A stretch of 64,000 nucleotides of DNA, taken from a virus (lineage: Duplodnaviria > Heunggongvirae > Uroviricota > Caudoviricetes). The notes under the pieces were generated by a model. The model ran no database searches, was not told the DNA's origin, and worked only from the letters and a program-made list of their open reading frames with translations. The stretch lies in the IMG/VR virus record IMGVR_UViG_2667527592_000002; one strand, given 5' to 3'. Positions 1,799-40,195 of the stretch are shown here, piece by piece (within the stretch, counting starts at the first letter, position 1; each line of letters begins with the position of its first letter). The position numbers and the translations under genes were made by a program.

Positions 1799-1814
1799 TA
1801 GTTTTCTAATATAA
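1799..1814 (+). promoter_or_regulatory. operator-like motif, variant copy (TAGTTTTCTAATATAA)
   Basis: Member of recurring asymmetric motif family; about 80 bp upstream of the 1890 operon. Confidence 0.35.
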
Positions 1815-1889
1815 TCATCTTTTTACCAGTCTATACAGTTTTAACATTCTCATTATCATCCCCTCGGTCATTTCCTGCCCGGGGGATTA

Positions 1890-2282
1890 ATGGAACAAAT
1901 CAGCAGCGCAGAAATTGCGGATATCATGATCAGGGCTGACTGCTATCTGACAGTCACTGAAATTACCACTCTCGCCAAAGAAAAATACCCTCATCTCCAT
2001 GTTTCACGAGTAAGTGTAACTAACATCATTCGTCATTTTGTTCGTTCAAGCAGGGCAATCTGTGAGCTGGATGATCGTGTGTATCCACGAAAATACTGGC
2101 TACATGGTCTGAACGGATATCAGTTCAAGGTGCGCGGGCGCACGCCTGAATACGGTAGCTTACTGGTTAAAAACTGTAGCAGGAAATCAGTCGAACAGGC
2201 GCGAAAAGAGCAACGAGAGCTGGTGGACATGGCGAATAAGCTGTGGAATGCCGCCGTTAAAAAGCGTGGTGTTGCTTTATGA
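1890..2282 (+). CDS. hypothetical protein (130 aa)
   Basis: ORF track; stop overlaps pacA-like start (ATGA). Confidence 0.5.
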   Translation: MEQISSAEIADIMIRADCYLTVTEITTLAKEKYPHLHVSRVSVTNIIRHFVRSSRAICELDDRVYPRKYWLHGLNGYQFKVRGRTPEYGSLLVKNCSRKSVEQARKEQRELVDMANKLWNAAVKKRGVAL

Positions 2283-3643
2283 GTCTGGTTAATTGGGAGG
2301 AGCACCGCGCCCGCTTTATAGCGTTGCGTGAAGAAAAAGGGATCACTGTAAAGGAATACTGTGAGGAGCATGGCCTTAGCTTCAATACAGCCAGAAAGCA
2401 TCTCAATATGAAAAAAAATGAGGTGCGGTCGCAGGTAAAGACAACAAAAAAAAGCACCAAATCACCTGAAAAAAAACGGGCGGGAAGAGCAACAAAAAAG
2501 CTGGAAGAGGGTGCAGAAAAAACAAAATTTACAGAAATTGACAATTCGCAGGGTGCAGGTTCTTTCCGAAGTATGCCAAGAAAGAAAACTTCGGATCATG
2601 AAAGTAATTCCAATAATAACAATGAGATAAAAGAATCTGTCAGGAGATCATTGCGCGAAAAAATGGCGAAAATGATCCCCGAAGAAGATAAAAGCGCCCC
2701 AAAAATTGAGGGATCTTCAGCAATGATCCCTGGCGGTGCTGTGCAACGTGCCACATTGCCCACTACGAATGTGGCTCGCGACATGATGAAGAACGGCGCA
2801 GAAGAACACCTGCGGTTAGCAATTCAAATGGCGCAAGAGCGCGCACTTCAGTATCAAAGCATTGTTGATCAGGAGGCCGAACGTCTACAGGCGGAAATAG
2901 ACGCCTTGGGCGATAAAGAGCCAGAAGGAATGCACCCTGGGCAGCGCCTTCTCGGTCTAATCAGTGACGCGGCCTACTACATGAATGATTTTATCAGTAG
3001 GTTGGCAGCTATATATCAGTCCGAACAAAAGCTGCGACAGGGGGATGAAAAGCTTCGTCAGAGCGCTCGCCAGCAAGCATTCAAAGAGGCTGAGGCCAGA
3101 GAAAAACTCGAATTAGCACGCCTACAGGCCGAACAGCGTGGCAAAGAGATTGAATATCGCATTGGCGCTGACGCACGCGCTGCCAGAGTTATCGCCGCCG
3201 CTATACGTATGCGTGAGCGCGAGGAACTGGATGATATCGGTGTTGCTGAATACATCGAGCGCCAGGGGGTCAGCGTCCCGGCTATCCTCGCGGCGCGCGC
3301 GGCGAAAGCTATCACTCTTCTCGAACCACCTGTTTCTGACGTCAATGATGTTGATGATGAACAGCTGGACAAAGAGGCAAGGGAGTTTGCAACGCTTCAG
3401 GCTAACCATCCGCAATGGCTGGCAGAGCGCCGGGCGGATGTGGCAACCATTGTTGAAGAATTGGGGTGCGGAGATTACGACCGCAATGGCGAGCGTAAAG
3501 CTGGAGAATTCGAGGCCAGCGACGAAGAGCTGGATATTGACCCTTCGGCAACGGCTGAAATTTACGGTGATTATGATGCATCTGATGCAGGGTATGACGC
3601 CGGAGATGATGATATCGCGATAGAACCGCCGGAGGATGATTAA
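2279..3643 (+). CDS. putative terminase small subunit (PacA-like), acidic C-terminus
   Basis: Immediately upstream of and overlapping the large terminase; N-terminal HTH-like segment; internal GATC cluster; assignment by position, not by recognised sequence. Confidence 0.45.
   Translation: MSLVNWEEHRARFIALREEKGITVKEYCEEHGLSFNTARKHLNMKKNEVRSQVKTTKKSTKSPEKKRAGRATKKLEEGAEKTKFTEIDNSQGAGSFRSMPRKKTSDHESNSNNNNEIKESVRRSLREKMAKMIPEEDKSAPKIEGSSAMIPGGAVQRATLPTTNVARDMMKNGAEEHLRLAIQMAQERALQYQSIVDQEAERLQAEIDALGDKEPEGMHPGQRLLGLISDAAYYMNDFISRLAAIYQSEQKLRQGDEKLRQSARQQAFKEAEAREKLELARLQAEQRGKEIEYRIGADARAARVIAAAIRMREREELDDIGVAEYIERQGVSVPAILAARAAKAITLLEPPVSDVNDVDDEQLDKEAREFATLQANHPQWLAERRADVATIVEELGCGDYDRNGERKAGEFEASDEELDIDPSATAEIYGDYDASDAGYDAGDDDIAIEPPEDD
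2594..2728. other. GATC cluster (5 sites in 135 bp), candidate pac-type packaging site
   Basis: GATC at 2594, 2646, 2674, 2712, 2725, mostly as TGATC[CT] hexamers; P1 pac lies within pacA and is built from Dam-methylated TGATC[AG] hexamers. Confidence 0.35.
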
Positions 3644-5151
3644 TGGCTGGCGGGCGCAAGATTAAATGCGTCACCAGCGATCCACGCTGGCGCGATATGG
3701 TAATCAAATACCGCTACAACTTTACCCAGGCTGTTGTCGATATTTTTGGGATGTTCCCCTCCCACCAGCAGCAGCAGATCATTCAGTCAGTGCAGGAAAC
3801 GGGGAGTAGGACGACCGTCACGTCCGGACACGGAACGGGGAAGTCGTCCCTTACCGCGATGTTGCTGTTGATTTTTATGATCCTGTTCCCCGATGCCCGT
3901 GTCATCATTGTTGCTAACAAGATAGGCCAGGTAAAAACAGGCGTATTCAAATACGTTAAACAGTATTGGGCGAATGCAGTTAAGCGTCATGGGTGGTTGC
4001 AGACCTATTTTGTCCTCTCTGACACCATGTTTTATGAGCGCTCCCGTAAGGGGATTTGGGAAGTTCTCTGCAAAGGTTATCGACTCGGCAACGAAGAAGC
4101 GCTGGCGGGGGAACACGCGGCACATTTGCTTCTAATTCTGGACGAAGCATCTGGTATATCTGATAAGGCGATCGGCGTAATGACCGGTGCTCTTACTGAA
4201 GAAGATAACCGGATGTTGATGCTATCCCAGCCAACAAGGCCAAGTGGTTATTTCTACGATTCGCACCATTCTCAAGCAAAAACCCCAGACAACCCGAAAG
4301 GGATCTGGACAGCAATTGTTCTTAACTCGGAAGAATCACCGTTCGTCACACCACAATTCATCAAGCAGAAGCTTCTGGAATATGGCGGGCGCGATTCTAT
4401 TGAGTACATGGTCAAGGTGCTTGGTCAGTTCCCACGAGAAATTAACGGCTATTTGCTTGGTCGTGATGAATGCGATCGCGCTGCTCGCCGCAAGGTGTTG
4501 TTGGAGAAAAACTGGGGATGGGTGGCAACGGCTGACGTTGGTAATGGGCGAGATAAGTCGGTCCTCAACATCTGCAAAGTATCTGGTCACAGGGATAAGC
4601 GGCGCGTTGTTAACTTTAAGGTAATGGAGATGCCTGGCACTATGGACCCATTGGCCTTTGCTGACTTCATATATAACGAATGTACGCCGGAAAAATACCC
4701 GAATATAACAATCGCGGTTGATGCTGATGGTTTTGGTTCTGATACGTGTGCGCAGTTGGTGCGTCGTGGTGCGAACCCGGTACGTATTCGGTGGGGAAAA
4801 CCCATGTTTGCGAACAAAGACAGGGAGCGATTTGTTAATCAGCGTGCCTACGCAAATATTATGGCGCGTGATGCCATAAAGTCAGGGCGTATGCGGATAG
4901 ACAGTGACCCTAAAACGGCAGAGCAAGCGTCAAAAATCCCCTTTTTACTGAATGAAGAAGGGAAAATGGCGATGATGCGCAAAGAGCACATGCGGCAAAA
5001 GCTAAACATCAAATCGCCTGACCGATGGGATACCTACTGCTTCACTATGCTGGTGGACTATGTGCCTGCTAATGAAGATATTGGTGCCGAAATGGCAACT
5101 TTCCGAGATCAGGTTCTGGCGGATATCGAAATGCCGGATCTGGATATATAA
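3643..5151 (+). CDS. terminase large subunit (PacB-like)
   Basis: 502 aa; Walker A SGHGTGKS, Walker B LLLILDEAS, C-terminal acidic nuclease-like region; start overlaps pacA stop. Confidence 0.7.
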   Translation: MAGGRKIKCVTSDPRWRDMVIKYRYNFTQAVVDIFGMFPSHQQQQIIQSVQETGSRTTVTSGHGTGKSSLTAMLLLIFMILFPDARVIIVANKIGQVKTGVFKYVKQYWANAVKRHGWLQTYFVLSDTMFYERSRKGIWEVLCKGYRLGNEEALAGEHAAHLLLILDEASGISDKAIGVMTGALTEEDNRMLMLSQPTRPSGYFYDSHHSQAKTPDNPKGIWTAIVLNSEESPFVTPQFIKQKLLEYGGRDSIEYMVKVLGQFPREINGYLLGRDECDRAARRKVLLEKNWGWVATADVGNGRDKSVLNICKVSGHRDKRRVVNFKVMEMPGTMDPLAFADFIYNECTPEKYPNITIAVDADGFGSDTCAQLVRRGANPVRIRWGKPMFANKDRERFVNQRAYANIMARDAIKSGRMRIDSDPKTAEQASKIPFLLNEEGKMAMMRKEHMRQKLNIKSPDRWDTYCFTMLVDYVPANEDIGAEMATFRDQVLADIEMPDLDI

Positions 5152-5170
5152 AGCCCCGCGATGCGGGGCC
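5152..5170. terminator. hairpin between convergent genes (GCCCCGC-GAT-GCGGGGC)
   Basis: 7-bp GC stem; T/A-rich run follows on the minus strand, so mainly terminates the 5179..6216 transcript. Confidence 0.5.
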
Positions 5171-5178
5171 GGTTGTGA

Positions 5179-6216
5179 TTACCAGAGCTTCGCGGCGTAC
5201 TGCGTTTGGGGGAATGTGTATCCGTAACGTTCTTCGATTGCTTTGCCGTATTTTTTACGAGCTTCATTCAGTTTAATGCCGGTCAGGTCGTCTCCAGAGG
5301 CCATCATTACCTCTAACAATTCCAGATCCATTTTATCCAGCCTTGCCATTGCTTCACGTGATGTACGTATCTTACGCTCAATGATATGGCGAATAGCCGG
5401 ATCGGCATCCTCCAGCATCTTAGCGGATTTCTGCTTAAGGCTTTCATTGCGAATATCGATGTTCCTTAAGATGTACGACTTCGCAACGTAGCTTGGCTGG
5501 TGTTTTTCCAGGTCACGAACACGATATAAGTTAAAATCGCCGAGAAGGCTGCAAGGTACCGATTCGACGCCAGAATAAATTGTAATGCTCCGGCGTTCAC
5601 CAACATTATTGACAACGGGGATCGTTGTCTTCGGTAGTCTTGCGAAAACCAATGCGCCATGTGCGCCAACTCTAAAGCGAGAAAGGGCATTGCTGCCTTC
5701 GATGTTTGTTGTCAGCACAACATCTGTATATGCCTCTTTACGCGCCCGGTAGATCTCGCCTTCAGGCTCAGCTTCAAAGAAGCGCTGTTCTTCTTCAAGA
5801 GCGCCTACGATTTGAGAAAAAACCCTATTTTTCAGGCTTTTCTTTATGATTTTGTCGTATTTTTTGAGCAATTGTTCACGTGTAAATGTACGTGTTGTTG
5901 TAGCGCTTTGCACAACAACATGCGTGCTTTGATTGGTGTCCTCAATGATGAATGGGATCGGAGAATATACAGACTCAACAATGTTCGACGCTTTGCCGTC
6001 GGCATCGCGGCACATGTCAACGAAGGCTTTCCATTCAGCAAGACATTTTTCAGCTTCTTCTAATATGTTTTGGTCATGCGTTAATGCAACATGGCGGAAT
6101 TCCTCGCCAGCATAACTGGTATCATGGAAAACAGAGTTTGCGACCACCAGCTCTTTCCACCGTTCAGCGGTTTGCAGGAACCGTTTGTACTCTTTCTCGA
6201 TCGACTTCTTACTCAT
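5179..6216 (-). CDS. hypothetical protein (345 aa); candidate lysogeny regulator by position
   Basis: ORF track; ATG with AGGA RBS; operator-like motif 16-33 bp upstream; sits between terminase and lox-cre. Confidence 0.55.
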   Translation of the reverse strand: MSKKSIEKEYKRFLQTAERWKELVVANSVFHDTSYAGEEFRHVALTHDQNILEEAEKCLAEWKAFVDMCRDADGKASNIVESVYSPIPFIIEDTNQSTHVVVQSATTTRTFTREQLLKKYDKIIKKSLKNRVFSQIVGALEEEQRFFEAEPEGEIYRARKEAYTDVVLTTNIEGSNALSRFRVGAHGALVFARLPKTTIPVVNNVGERRSITIYSGVESVPCSLLGDFNLYRVRDLEKHQPSYVAKSYILRNIDIRNESLKQKSAKMLEDADPAIRHIIERKIRTSREAMARLDKMDLELLEVMMASGDDLTGIKLNEARKKYGKAIEERYGYTFPQTQYAAKLW

Positions 6217-6425: not shown

Positions 6426-6459
6426 ATAACTTTAAATAATTGGCATTATTTAAAGTTAG
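6426..6459. other. lox-like recombination site (13-bp inverted arms, 8-bp spacer)
   Basis: ATAACTTTAAATA-ATTGGCAT-TATTTAAAGTTAG; arms 12/13 complementary and about 10/13 identical to loxP arms; 150 bp upstream of cre-like gene. Confidence 0.7.
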
Positions 6460-6610: not shown

Positions 6611-7639
6611 ATGGGTGAATTAATTATCTCTGGCAGTTCCGGTGGTTTTCTGCGCAACATTGGCAAAGAGTACCAGGAAGCCGCAGAAAACTTTATGCGG
6701 TTCATGAATGACCAGGGGGCTTATGCGCCGAATACTCTGCGCGACCTCCGGTTGGTGTTTCATTCCTGGGCGCGCTGGTGTCACGCTCGCCAGCTTGCCT
6801 GGTTTCCGATCTCACCAGAAATGGCCCGCGAGTATTTTCTTCAGCTGCATGATGCCGATCTGGCTTCGACCACCATTGATAAGCACTACGCCATGCTGAA
6901 CATGCTGCTTTCGCATTGTGGCCTTCCGCCACTTTCGGATGATAAAAGTGTTTCTCTGGCTATGCGGCGCATCCGGCGCGAAGCAGCAACTGAAAAAGGC
7001 GAACGAACAGGCCAGGCTATACCGCTGCGGTGGGACGATCTGAAACTGCTCGACGTCCTGTTGTCCAGGTCAGAACGGCTGGTGGACCTGCGCAACCGGG
7101 CTTTTCTCTTTGTTGCATACAATACGCTGATGCGTATGTCGGAAATCTCGCGTATTCGTGTAGGAGATCTGGACCAGACAGGTGACACTGTCACGCTACA
7201 TATTTCACACACGAAGACAATAACGACCGCCGCCGGGCTTGATAAGGTGCTTTCCCGTCGCACTACCGCTGTGCTGAATGACTGGCTGGATGTTTCCGGG
7301 CTTCGCGAACATCCTGACGCAGTGCTGTTCCCGCCGATACACCGTAGCAATAAGGCCAGGATCACGACAACGCCCCTTACTGCACCTGCAATGGAGAAAA
7401 TATTCAGCGACGCCTGGGTGTTGCTGAATAAAAGAGATGCTACGCCAAACAAAGGAAGATACCGGACGTGGACCGGGCATAGTGCACGCGTCGGGGCCGC
7501 TATTGATATGGCTGAAAAGCAGGTGTCTATGGTGGAGATCATGCAGGAAGGAACCTGGAAGAAACCGGAAACACTTATGCGGTATCTTCGCCGTGGCGGC
7601 GTGTCTGTGGGGGCTAATAGCCGCCTGATGGATTCGTAA
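6611..7639 (+). CDS. cre: Cre-type tyrosine recombinase
   Basis: 342 aa; long collinear similarity to P1 Cre including GHSARVGAA...W...Y active-site region and NTLMRMSEISRIRVGD block. Confidence 0.9.
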   Translation: MGELIISGSSGGFLRNIGKEYQEAAENFMRFMNDQGAYAPNTLRDLRLVFHSWARWCHARQLAWFPISPEMAREYFLQLHDADLASTTIDKHYAMLNMLLSHCGLPPLSDDKSVSLAMRRIRREAATEKGERTGQAIPLRWDDLKLLDVLLSRSERLVDLRNRAFLFVAYNTLMRMSEISRIRVGDLDQTGDTVTLHISHTKTITTAAGLDKVLSRRTTAVLNDWLDVSGLREHPDAVLFPPIHRSNKARITTTPLTAPAMEKIFSDAWVLLNKRDATPNKGRYRTWTGHSARVGAAIDMAEKQVSMVEIMQEGTWKKPETLMRYLRRGGVSVGANSRLMDS

Positions 7640-36017: not shown

Positions 36018-36923
36018 ATGAGATCAGTCGCTTTCAAAAATATCTTCATCTATCGTCTTTCACGCGAAGTTAACTGGGATACCGCAGAAGTAAATGCTGC
36101 CCTTAGCAAGTTTGTGTTTACCCCATGCGGTTCTCAGGATATTGCTAAAGCTGGTTGGACCCCCGTCCTTGGCGACAACCTCACCCATGAATACAAGGGT
36201 TTTCTTCTGATACAGCATAAACGAGAGGAAAAAATCCTACCTTCTCAAGTGCTCAAAGAAGAGCTACAGAAAAAAATCCTGAAACTTGAAGAAGAACAAG
36301 ACAGAAAGCTGAAGAAGACCGAAAAAGATTCGCTGAAGGATGAAGTGCTTCACTCTCTTCTTCCTCGTGCTTTCACGAGAAAATCAGTCGCTAAAATCCT
36401 GATAGACCGAAGCAATCATCTGGTTTTTGTCGAGGCGAGCAGTGCTAAAAAAGCAGAGGATCAGCTGGCTTTGTTACGGAAATCTCTTGGCAGCTTGCCC
36501 GTTGTCCCCTTCTCTCCGAAAGACCCATTAGAACTGACCATCACTGGCTGGATTAAAAATGGCTTCCCGAACGGTTTCCGTGCCGGTGAGGAAGCGACCT
36601 TAAAAGCATTGCTTGATGATGGCGGCGCGGTCCGCTGCAAAAAAGTGGACCTGCTATCCGACGAGATCATGAGTCATATAGAAGCTGGTAAGGTTGCAAC
36701 CACAGTTGCGGTTAACTGGCAAGACCGTGCATTTTTCAGACTGAATGACGATATGAGTATCAAGGCTTTGTCGTTCAGCGACGAATTGTACGACCAGAAC
36801 GACGATATTGATCGAGAGGATGTTGCTCAACGATTTGACGCTGACTTTATCCTGTTTACTGCTGAATTATCAGCGATGTTCACTTCGCTGGTGGAGGCCG
36901 TTGGTGGTGAAGCAGAACGTTAA
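36018..36923 (+). CDS. rdgC: recombination-associated protein RdgC
   Basis: Collinear with E. coli RdgC as I recall it: [45 protein letters not shown]. Confidence 0.85.
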
Positions 36924-36936
36924 CAATAGACCTCTT

Positions 36937-37587
36937 ATGGTGAGTCTTTGTGATTTCACGGGGAAAATGGTCGCCCCCTGGCTGGAGCATGGTATAGATG
37001 CTGTTATCGTCGATCCACAACACGCAAAGACCACAGATGAGCTGATGCAATCAGGCGCAGTTCTGACACGTATCAGTGCGATTATCGATAGTGATGAAGT
37101 TTATGCTTTTCTCCGAAATAATTTACAACGTATTGTGTTTTTAGCTGGTTTTCCGCCGTGCACGGACCTTGCTGTTTCCGGTGCGCGCTGGTTTGCACAT
37201 AAGGCTGACAAAGATCCGGTTTTCCAGTTCAAAGCGATGCAAGTCGTCTGGCAGTGTTACGACATTGCAAAGATGATTGGTTGCCCGTACATGATTGAAA
37301 ACCCGGTCAGCCAAATATCGACATTCTGGCGTAAACCTGATCACATCTTCCATCCTTACCACTTCACTGCATATTGCAAGGAAGACAATTACACCAAAAA
37401 AACATGCCTCTGGAGCGGGCAGGGCTTTGTCATGCCTGATGCCCTAATGGACGAATCATTAGGCAAGCCAGATAACAGAATCCATACCGCGCCACCTGGG
37501 CCTGAAAGGGCTAATTTTCGAAGTGCTACTCCGAATGGATTCGCAAAAGCAGTTTTCGAAGCAAATAAGGGGGTGCTCTATGAGTAA
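36937..37587 (+). CDS. short DNA (cytosine-5) methyltransferase-like protein
   Basis: GFPPC (PC catalytic motif), MIENPV (ENV motif); only 217 aa, no obvious target-recognition domain. Confidence 0.45.
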   Translation: MVSLCDFTGKMVAPWLEHGIDAVIVDPQHAKTTDELMQSGAVLTRISAIIDSDEVYAFLRNNLQRIVFLAGFPPCTDLAVSGARWFAHKADKDPVFQFKAMQVVWQCYDIAKMIGCPYMIENPVSQISTFWRKPDHIFHPYHFTAYCKEDNYTKKTCLWSGQGFVMPDALMDESLGKPDNRIHTAPPGPERANFRSATPNGFAKAVFEANKGVLYE

Positions 37588-38485
37588 ATCTCTAGTAAGC
37601 ACAGCCATAGAAAGACATGATTCGATGGCGGAAATTAGCTATATGCGCACCATTCGGACTCCGGATGAATACGAGCGTCCGATCTTCAAATGGGTAGGCG
37701 GTAAATTTTCAGAGTTGCCTATAGTGCTTGAGCATCTACCACACGGTAAGCGGTTAATAGAACCATTCGTTGGTGGCGGTTCCGTATTTACGAATGCAGG
37801 ATTTCGCCACAACCTGCTTAATGATATTAACGGTGACTTGATTAACTTCTATCAGACATTGCAGCGAGAAAGACATTCTCTAGTCACGCTGTCATATAGT
37901 TTTTTCCAAAATTACAACAACGCTGACGCTTACCTCGAAGTGCGTGAGGCATTTAACAGAGGAAAGTATGACCAACTACATCATGCTGCTGCCTTTTTGT
38001 ACCTTAATCGGCACTGTTTTAATGGCGTAACACGGTACAACCAAAATGGCGAGTTCAACGTAGGGTATGGTAAATACAAAGCGCCCTACTTCCCACATGC
38101 AGAGATGGAGGCATTTTTGGCTGATGACGTACTCAAAAACACTTCCTTTGTATCAGGTGACTTTGCTGGCGTCATCGAGGCGGCTGGTGAAGGCGATGTG
38201 ATTTTTTGCGATCCGCCGTATGAACCGCTGCCGGATACAGAAGGGTTTACCAGTTATTCAGGAAATAGCTTCCGTTTCGACGAACAGAAACGGCTGGTAT
38301 CTCTATTGGTGGAAGCCCACCAGCGCGGCGCTAAGGTAGTGATTACAAATAGTGGTGCTCCAAACATCCGTGAACTATATGAAGGAAACGGGTTTAAAGT
38401 ACATCATATGGCAGCCAGACGGTCGGTTTCCTGCAAGGCGTCAACACGTGTAGTTGCTAACGATATAATTGCAATAATGAAGTAA
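37580..38485 (+). CDS. Dam-family DNA adenine methyltransferase
   Basis: KWVGGK, EPFVGGGSVF and DPPY motifs; start overlaps upstream stop. Confidence 0.85.
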   Translation: MSKSLVSTAIERHDSMAEISYMRTIRTPDEYERPIFKWVGGKFSELPIVLEHLPHGKRLIEPFVGGGSVFTNAGFRHNLLNDINGDLINFYQTLQRERHSLVTLSYSFFQNYNNADAYLEVREAFNRGKYDQLHHAAAFLYLNRHCFNGVTRYNQNGEFNVGYGKYKAPYFPHAEMEAFLADDVLKNTSFVSGDFAGVIEAAGEGDVIFCDPPYEPLPDTEGFTSYSGNSFRFDEQKRLVSLLVEAHQRGAKVVITNSGAPNIRELYEGNGFKVHHMAARRSVSCKASTRVVANDIIAIMK

Positions 38486-38533: not shown

Positions 38534-40195
38534 TTAACCTAACTTCGCCCAGGTATCACGCAGCCCAACGGTGCGGTTAAATACCGGTTTTTCCGCCGTA
38601 GAATGGCGGCTGTCGAGGCAGAAATAACCTTCACGCTCAAACTGGAATGCTTTACCCGCTACCGCTTCTTTCAGCGACGGTTCAGCAAAGCCTTGTTTGA
38701 TCACCAGCGATTCCGGGTTAATCACCGACAGGAAATCATCCGCAGCACCTGGGTTCGGTACACTGAACAGACGGTCGTACAGGCGAATTTCAACCGGCAG
38801 CGCATGTGCCGCGCTCACCCAGTGAATAACGCCTTTCACTTTACGACCATCTGCCGGATCTTTGCTTAAGGTGTCGGCGTCATAAGTACAGAAGATGGTG
38901 GTGATATTGCCTTCGGCATCTTTCTCCACGCGTTCAGCCTTAATGACGTAAGCATTACGCAGACGCACTTCTTTACCCAGCACCAGACGTTTGTACTGCT
39001 TGTTAGCTTCTTCGCGGAAATCGGCGCGGTCGATCCAAATCTCACCGCTAAACGGCACCTGACGGCTACCCATTTCCGGTTTGTTTGGATGGTTCGGCAT
39101 GGTGACCATTTCGCCTTCGCCCTGGTAGTTTTCGATAACCAGTTTCACCGGATCGATAACCGCCATTGCGCGCGGGGCATTTTCGTTGAGATCTTCACGG
39201 ATGCAGGATTCCAGCGACGCCATCTCAATGGTGTTGTCCTGCTTGGTCACGCCGATGCGTTTGCAGAACTCACGAATAGAAGCCGCAGTGTAACCACGAC
39301 GACGCAGACCGGAAATGGTCGGCATACGCGGGTCATCCCAGCCTTCAACGTGCTTGTCGGTCACCAGCAGGTTCAGCTTACGCTTGGACATCACGGTGTA
39401 TTCCAGATTCAGGCGCGAGAATTCGTACTGGCGCGGGTGAACAGGAATGGTGATGTTGTCCAGTACCCAGTCATACAGACGACGGTTGTCCTGGAACTCA
39501 AGCGTACACAGAGAGTGCGTAATACCTTCCAGCGCATCGCTGATGCAGTGGGTGAAGTCGTACATCGGGTAGATGCACCACTTGTTGCCAGTCTGGTGGT
39601 GTTCAGCAAACTTAATACGGTACAGCACCGGGTCGCGCATCACGATAAACGGCGAAGCCATGTCGATTTTCGCACGCAGGCAGGCTTTACCTTCTTCAAA
39701 ACCACCGGCACGCATTTTTTCGAACAGCGCCAGGTTCTCTTCAACGCTGCGGTCGCGGTACGGGCTGTTTTTACCCGGCTGCGTCAGGGTGCCGCGGTAT
39801 TCGCGGATCTGTTCCGGCGTCAGTTCGTCAACATACGCCAGGCCTTTGTTGATCAGTTCAACAGCATAGGCATGGAGTTTGTCAAAATAATCGGAGGAGT
39901 AACGGATGTTGCCAGACCAGTGAAAACCTAACCATTCAACGTCGTTTTTAATCGACTCAACGTACTCGATATCTTCTTTTACCGGGTTAGTGTCGTCGAA
40001 ACGCAGGTTGCACTGGCCTTTATAGTCCTGGGCGATCCCGAAGTTCAGGCAGATAGATTTCGCATGACCAATATGCAGATAGCCATTCGGTTCCGGCGGG
40101 AAACGGGTATGTACTGTGGTGTGCTTACCACTGGCCAGATCTTCATCGATGATCTGACGAATAAAGTTAGTCGGGCGGGCTTCTGCCTCACTCAT
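38534..40195 (-). CDS. glnS: glutaminyl-tRNA synthetase
   Basis: 553 aa; near-identical to E. coli GlnRS from memory ([17 protein letters not shown]...; HIGH in YLHIGHAKS; MSK in VMSKRKL). Confidence 0.95.

Follow-up and report, generated by a model that had tools for sequence, protein, structure and literature searches.

A conserved cluster of Dam sites within pacA is the probable pac site of a D6-like, P1-family phage-plasmid

The 64,000-nucleotide (nt) stretch of viral DNA analysed here (the window; IMG/VR record IMGVR_UViG_2667527592_000002) belongs to a D6-like, P1-family phage-plasmid, and its pacA gene contains a cluster of five GATC sites that is probably the pac site, i.e., the start signal for headful packaging. 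The segment at 1800–5200 showed 99.5% identity to Escherichia phage D6, a P1-family plasmid prophage, and also matched 119 plasmids from E. coli, Salmonella, Shigella and Enterobacter; for the pacA region, 119–121 PLSDB plasmids were matched. Gene names were taken from the D6 records AY753669 and MF356679. The locus starts with lpa (1890–2282), followed on the plus strand by pacA (2279–3643), which encodes the 454-residue small terminase, or pacase A subunit, and by pacB (3643–5151), annotated as pacB in D6 and encoding the large terminase, or pacase B subunit. Beyond pacB lie c1 (5179–6216, minus strand), the rox site, target of the Dre recombinase (6427–6458, identical in sequence to the rox of AY753669), and dre (6611–7639). 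The rox site is 3.7 kb downstream of the GATC cluster in the direction of pacA transcription, and in D6 the annotated replication genes, repL and repA, are away from the cluster. Neither D6 GenBank record carries a pac annotation; rox is annotated in both, and cix in the complete-genome record. Nor was a description of the D6 pac site found in searchable full text, a scope outside which the original D6 papers lie.

The window’s pacA is 99.5% identical to D6 pacA, and the PacA open reading frame (ORF) matches the PHROG 1711 terminase (E 6e-183). PacB is 56% identical to P1 PacB over 488 residues. By BLASTP, PacA is only 21% identical to P1 PacA, collinear with it end to end, and a tblastn search of phage records with D6 PacA at E 1e-5 did not recover P1. 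The five GATC sites, at 2594, 2646, 2674, 2712 and 2725, occupy 135 bp, all within pacA (nt 316–450 of 1365; codons 106–150), in the part that encodes a hypervariable linker, and are separated by 52, 28, 38 and 13 bp. D6 carries the same five, with two substitutions in 200 bp relative to the window. An earlier note on this DNA, made from its letters, had reported five GATC sites in 135 bp of a pacA-like gene, and we found them at the same positions in the 454-codon ORF. The background rate of about one GATC per 256 bp assumed in that note was too high: the window has 211 sites, or one per 303 bp, slightly under the shuffled expectation of 241 ± 15. The pacA cluster is the tightest group of 3, 4, 5, 6 or 7 sites in the window, and the tightest group of 4, 5 or 6 in the complete 91,159-bp D6 genome. 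In a single 135-bp stretch named beforehand, such a cluster has a Poisson chance of about 1e-4 (λ 0.445). With the position left free, a run of five sites in 135 bp or less turned up at some point of the window in 17% of uniform placements and in 21% of first-order Markov simulations, and an equally tight five-site cluster arose somewhere in the whole D6 genome in 31% of random placements.

When aligned in orientation, the sites share an asymmetric unit of 7–10 bp, (A)ATGATCC(C), found on either strand and centred in each case on the Dam site. In full the unit is AAATGATCCC, or GGGATCATTT on the opposite strand, and is longer than a hexamer. From element 1 to element 5 the window reads tcATGATCCg (−), cAATGATCTc (−), AAATGATCCC (+), GGGATCTT (−/+) and cAATGATCCC (+). 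Relatives with 75% identity have a near-perfect fit to the unit at four of the five sites, and three of the window’s nine copies of ATGATCC fall in the cluster. The description of the sites as mostly TGATC[CT] in the earlier note fails for the plus strand alone, where just two fit (TGATCC at 2673–2678 and 2724–2729); it holds for four of the five when both strands are read, the minus strand having TGATCC at 2593–2598 and TGATCT at 2645–2650. The fifth site is GGATCT/AGATCC.

Element 1 (ATGATCC, 2593–2599, minus strand; GATC 2594–2597) is read as Asp-His. Element 2 (AATGATCT, 2645–2652, minus strand; GATC 2646–2649) encodes Arg-Ser in the window and Gly-Ser in the 75%-identity lineages, and is orthologous to a site at pacA nt 380 in an Enterobacter lineage. 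Element 3 (AATGATCCCC, 2671–2680, plus strand; GATC 2674–2677) encodes Met-Ile-Pro, is part of a direct repeat (D2) and makes an inverted pair with element 2 (I3). Element 4 (AGGGATCTT, 2709–2717, assigned to neither strand; GATC 2712–2715) encodes Gly-Ser in the window and Arg-Ser in two relatives (L008 and L011); in relatives it is GGGATCATT or AGATCAT, i.e., ATGATCY on the minus strand. Element 5 (AATGATCCCT, 2722–2731, plus strand; GATC 2725–2728) again encodes Met-Ile-Pro, and forms a 7-bp inverted repeat (I9) with element 4. Elements 1 and 2 are separated by a 48-bp spacer (2598–2645) that is 73% A+T; as a low-confidence guess, this might be the region of bending and cleavage.

Conservation was assessed in 32 distinct D6-type pacA sequences, representing three or four deep lineages, from plasmids and IMG/VR. 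The GATCs of elements 1 to 5 were kept at their exact positions in 32, 31, 31, 32 and 32 of these, respectively. Both losses were single T-to-C changes confined to one contig each. These natural single-site variants have GACC in place of GATC at pacA nt 368 (element 2; L021) and nt 396 (L042). The DNA that surrounds the sites is poorly conserved: identity between the deep D6-type lineages across pacA nt 271–480 is just 61–63%, only 8.5% of the 4-nt windows in nt 151–540 are invariant, and GATC sites elsewhere in the 3′ two-thirds of the gene were gained and lost among the sequences. The encoded protein follows the same course, with 79–90% identity in the N-terminal domain, 38–39% in the linker (residues 49–160) and 77–88% in the C-terminal part. 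A single-sequence structure model was weak (predicted template modelling score, pTM, 0.24), and its low confidence at residues 60–112 and 133–170 is compatible with a flexible, probably disordered segment.

All three reading frames are used to translate the motif (Asp-His, Arg/Gly-Ser and Met-Ile), and elements 2 and 4 retain GATC despite the interchange of Arg and Gly. When the stretch was resampled synonymously, 1.6–2.2 GATC sites were expected, compared with the five observed (P = 0.009, 0.018, 0.003 and 0.021 in four lineages); the proven pac of P1 gave P = 0.007 in the same procedure. Synonymous resampling detected no GATC excess in the remainder of pacA. Taken together, these sequence comparisons indicate that the evolutionary constraint acts on the DNA, not on the protein.

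There is a candidate sixth element well outside the cluster. It is an isolated GATC (2341–2344; pacA nt 63), 253 bp upstream of the cluster, which bears the D6-type extended motif on the minus strand (TGATCCC/GTGATCCC, 2339–2345). All 32 D6-type genes retain this GATC, and its synonymous positions (GGG ATC) do not vary. It may be an outlying pac element; membership is uncertain, because the site lies in the conserved part of the gene that encodes the helix-turn-helix (HTH) domain and is absent from the Enterobacter lineage.

Two further features of D6-type pacA came to light. The 30-nt segment AGAAAGCATCTCAATATGAAAAAAAATGAG (2393–2422; pacA nt 115–144) is invariant in all 32 sequences, synonymous positions included; overall in D6-type pacA, just 28% of the codons for invariant degenerate amino acids are themselves invariant. 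The segment holds an A8 run, codes for the end of the HTH domain (RKHLNMKKNE) and is not conserved as DNA in the Enterobacter lineage. Such invariance could stem from a signal at the DNA or RNA level, or from past recombination. In the Salmonella plasmid pSa1423-90k (L007), a pacA copy at 501–1866, 88.7% identical, is disrupted by 18 in-frame stops and lacks a gene annotation. It retains the GATC pattern, shifted by indels, and may be a pseudogene or low-quality sequence.

The natural comparison is with P1. The P1 pac site comprises 161 bp within pacA, with seven TGATCA/G repeats that contain Dam sites, and its DNA is bent by integration host factor (IHF) and HU (PMC10028697). Hemimethylated pac DNA is bound, further methylation is required for cleavage, and synonymous recoding of the pac repeats lowered the titre about ninefold (PMC10028697). 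In the P1 record, pac cleavage is annotated at pacA nt 275–285, with an IHF site just upstream, and GATC sites at nt 195, 202, 214 and 229 and at nt 325, 337, 348 and 376 flank the cut, four on each side. The left-hand sites are four TGATCA hexamers, and the right-hand ones are, in order, TGATCG, TGATCA, TGATCA and TGATCG. By protein alignment, the D6 cluster falls both at and just after the position of the right-hand repeats of P1. Both sites lie in the 5′ third of pacA, where the linker that follows the N-terminal HTH domain is encoded, and both consist of multiple short GATC-centred elements with pacB immediately downstream and a Dam encoded by the phage. Moreover, the distance from the P1 pac cut to lox is 4.0 kb, in the same orientation as that from the D6 cluster to rox.

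The two sites differ in unit and in layout. The P1 unit, TGATCA/G, is near-palindromic, and the D6 unit is asymmetric; none of the five D6 elements is TGATCA or TGATCG, one being TGATCT and one GGATCT. P1 has 4+3 elements (HEX4 and HEX3) around a centre of about 90 bp (about 160 bp in all), whereas the five D6 elements form one spread of a similar overall length, 135 bp. Because neither the hexamer sequence nor the 4+3 layout of P1 was found, the D6-type site is set apart from P1 pac in the strict sense.

GATC clusters at pacA nt ~150–480 were present in all eight PacA lineages recovered from plasmids and IMG/VR. The sites are at nt 195–229 and 325–376 in the P1 type; at nt 176 or 202 to 229, and 325–391, in L069/L070; at nt 214–247 and 318–409 in Pantoea L015; at nt 199–255 and 338–375 in the L063 type; at nt 154–238 and 339 in L048; and at nt 157–181 and 380–471 in Enterobacter L012/L044. 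The L050 type has six or seven sites with an exact 12-bp period from nt 154, plus sites at nt 363 and 379. In the D6 type, the cluster is at nt 316–447 only, and the D6 type is the only lineage that lacks a left-hand cluster, which in the others has 3–7 sites within nt 154–255. The Enterobacter and L048 lineages share the D6-type element (ATGATCCC/GGGATCAT), the remaining lineages use TGATCA/G, and elements 2, 3 and 5 of D6 have orthologues in the Enterobacter lineage, which is 55% identical. The comparison of lineages shows that Dam-site arrays within pacA are a general and ancient feature of the entire PacA family, not a peculiarity of P1, and that both the sequence of the array unit and its layout have changed among the lineages.

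Two of these lineages have arrays of particular design. In the Enterobacter hormaechei plasmid p60214CZ_1 (L012), and in L044 and L046, D6-type elements occur in a P1-like two-cluster layout, which makes this lineage intermediate; the clusters have 3 and 5 sites and are about 200 bp apart, the left one residing in a 4-codon insertion relative to D6. The PacA proteins of L050–L062, L067 and L068 are 32–33% identical to D6 PacA, and their genes have six to seven TGATCA-type sites at nt 154–214. The 12-bp period of this array, which appears in the protein as a tandem of x-Asp-His-x tetrapeptides, makes it the most regular pac-like array among the lineages. We know of no experimental study of the pac regions of the other recovered PacA lineages.

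The methylase that would act on these sites is encoded by the element itself. The ORF at 37580–38485 (plus strand; start at ATG 37580 or GTG 37523) matches PF02086 (D12 class; E 3e-56), E. coli Dam (2G1P; E 3e-58 over 269 residues), DpnII M1 (1e-46) and T4 Dam (3e-10), matches that identify it as an N6-adenine methyltransferase and bear out the Dam-family methylase named in the earlier note. Its closest solved relatives, E. coli Dam and DpnII M1, are both GATC-specific; by homology the enzyme is a true Dam relative, with predicted GATC specificity. The D6 counterpart, D6_63, is annotated “similar to C-term half of P1 dmt”. In a comparison that covered D6-type and P1-type contigs, the element’s Dam was 66–70% identical to the Dam domain on P1-type contigs, compared with only 21% for PacA. 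Directly upstream of dam lies a 259-codon ORF that starts at TTG (36808–37587, plus strand). It corresponds to D6_64, a “putative DNA-cytosine methylase”, and had no Pfam match; the bifunctional dmt of P1 appears to be split into two genes here. On the other side of dam, a 553-codon gene (38534–40195, minus strand) is the equivalent of D6_62, whose annotation is glutaminyl-tRNA synthetase with similarity to E. coli GlnS; such cargo is unusual in a phage-plasmid.

From the identity of the locus, the exact positional conservation, the synonymous excess of GATC and the clusters in eight lineages, together with the lack of a rival cluster in D6, the Dam orthologue and the P1-like distance to rox, we conclude that the cluster is probably the D6-type pac site, as the earlier note had proposed. 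By analogy with P1, the PacA-PacB pacase would bind the elements on concatemeric DNA late in infection, and would cut nearby only if the GATC adenines were methylated, by host Dam or by the element’s own Dam. Packaging would then run processively rightwards via pacB, c1 and rox. With rightward packaging and rox only 3.7 kb away, the first headful would carry rox in its terminal redundancy, and Dre could circularise such a chromosome.

Other phages offer partial parallels. In P22 (gene 3), SPP1 (gene 1) and Sf6, pac lies within or beside the small-terminase gene, and, as proposed here, a site in or near that gene starts unidirectional headful packaging. To our knowledge, the pac sites of P22, SPP1 and Sf6 have neither Dam-site repeats nor methylation gating, and their terminases share no sequence relationship with PacA. 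The GATC clusters of E. coli oriC and of the P1 plasmid origin oriR are bound by SeqA or require Dam; they share with the D6 cluster a density of Dam sites whose methylation state could time post-replication events. The D6 cluster differs in that it lies inside pacA and not at a replicon, and neither DnaA boxes nor iterons were noticed, although no search aimed at them was made.

Several observations weigh against a P1-like pac site. The density of the cluster is by itself insignificant when its position is left free (P 0.17–0.31), and for this reason the case was not rested on density. Nothing was found at the HEX4-equivalent position of D6-type pacA, and because there is no left-hand cluster at nt 150–250, the P1 arrangement of elements on both sides of a cut is not reproduced. 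The D6 cluster also differs from P1 in having no recognisable IHF consensus inside: WATCAANNNNTTR, with up to one mismatch allowed, was not found in 2594–2728, although this consensus is weak and the annotated IHF site of P1 itself has a mismatch to it. A perfect match, TATCAAAGCATTG, does occur at 2852–2864, directly before a GATC at 2867 and 124 bp past the cluster; the 75%-identity relatives preserve neither this match nor the GATC at 2867. The Met-Ile-Pro peptides of elements 3 and 5 are themselves conserved, so that part of the conservation could be at the protein level. Finally, pacase binding, cleavage and its position, the direction of packaging and the dependence on methylation are all carried over from P1, and since the two PacA proteins are 21% identical, the biochemical details may differ between D6 and P1.

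This last point bears on an alternative in which PacA does recognise the cluster as pac, with GATC making up only part of what it reads, and cleavage is independent of methylation; Dam would then serve in anti-restriction, in the timing of replication or in gene regulation. Compared with that of P1, the D6-type element is longer, and it is asymmetric (AAATGATCCC), so its recognition need not depend on methyl groups. Even so, we consider this alternative unlikely. GATC is the one invariant core across the eight PacA lineages while the flanks vary, which is the pattern predicted by a requirement for Dam methylation; the element’s Dam has been retained at 66–70% identity between the D6 and P1 types though PacA has diverged to 21%; and dependence on methylation has been described for P1 (PMC10028697). 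A more distant possibility is that the cluster is a Dam- or SeqA-responsive element with some other job, such as sequestration, an origin-like function or control of pacA and pacB, and that the true pac is elsewhere. Clusters of GATC do perform such jobs at oriC and at the P1 plasmid origin, and the D6 site is without the bipartite layout of P1. We regard this as improbable: a promoter and terminator scan found no sigma-70-like promoter in the cluster or its vicinity, the annotations put repL and repA at other places, no other GATC or TGATCA/G cluster that might act as pac was found anywhere in the D6 genome, and in every lineage the position equals the gene region of the proven P1 pac.

It is more improbable still that the conservation reflects peptide motifs of PacA (K/Q-M-I-P and D-H), with GATC as a functionless by-product. 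Two copies of Met-Ile-Pro are encoded, and the D6, Enterobacter and L048 lineages all preserve this peptide; the Asp-His of element 1 is likewise conserved, and the protein sequence alone predicts some of the GATC sites in the stretch (1.6–2.2). This account leaves unexplained the use of one DNA motif in three frames and on both strands, the retention of GATC in elements 2 and 4 while Arg and Gly swap, and the keeping of synonymous third positions within the motifs, compared with 28% of comparable codons overall. In addition, the observed GATC count exceeds that of synonymous resampling in every lineage, and the peptides sit in a segment of 38% identity with a low-confidence model. As for a chance local excess of a common tetramer, the 17–31% of random placements with an equally tight cluster somewhere would allow it; the position-exact retention in 32 sequences across lineages of 61–63% identity, the common extended motif and the reappearance of clusters at this place in pacA lineages that cannot be aligned effectively refute it.

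Contig ends were considered as a proxy for the packaging terminus and rejected. In IMG genome 2537562191, the end of contig L047 and the start of contig L036 meet inside pacA at ~2598–2607, directly after element 1, with a 10-nt overlap, ATGAAAATAA. This is one break in one genome, and none of the 13 other viral contigs that carry the site ends there. The apparent end of metagenome contig L108 proved to be unrelated sequence sharing a chance 20-mer, and L109 to be an internal chunk and not a contig end.

The probable D6-type pac site is the expected counterpart of the well-studied P1 system and not a new principle. We suggest, tentatively and with some doubt, that the D6-type pacase may read an architecture of its own: an asymmetric, Dam-centred AAATGATCCC of about 10 bp, arranged as inverted pairs in a single cluster and lacking the HEX4-like arm kept by all other PacA lineages, with a PacA specificity that would have co-diverged with it and be orthogonal to that of P1 (TGATCA/G versus ATGATCCC). 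In that case, a P1 and a D6 plasmid residing in one cell would each leave the other unpackaged, and phagemids could be delivered independently by the two types. Existing P1 phagemid systems rely on pac; for engineering, another pac/pacase pair that reads a different element might offer an orthogonal means of delivery. The PacA lineages provide a natural series for working out what pacase reads. In E. coli, Salmonella and Shigella, D6-like phage-plasmids are common and able to move host genes, so that where and how their packaging starts matters for predicting transduction.

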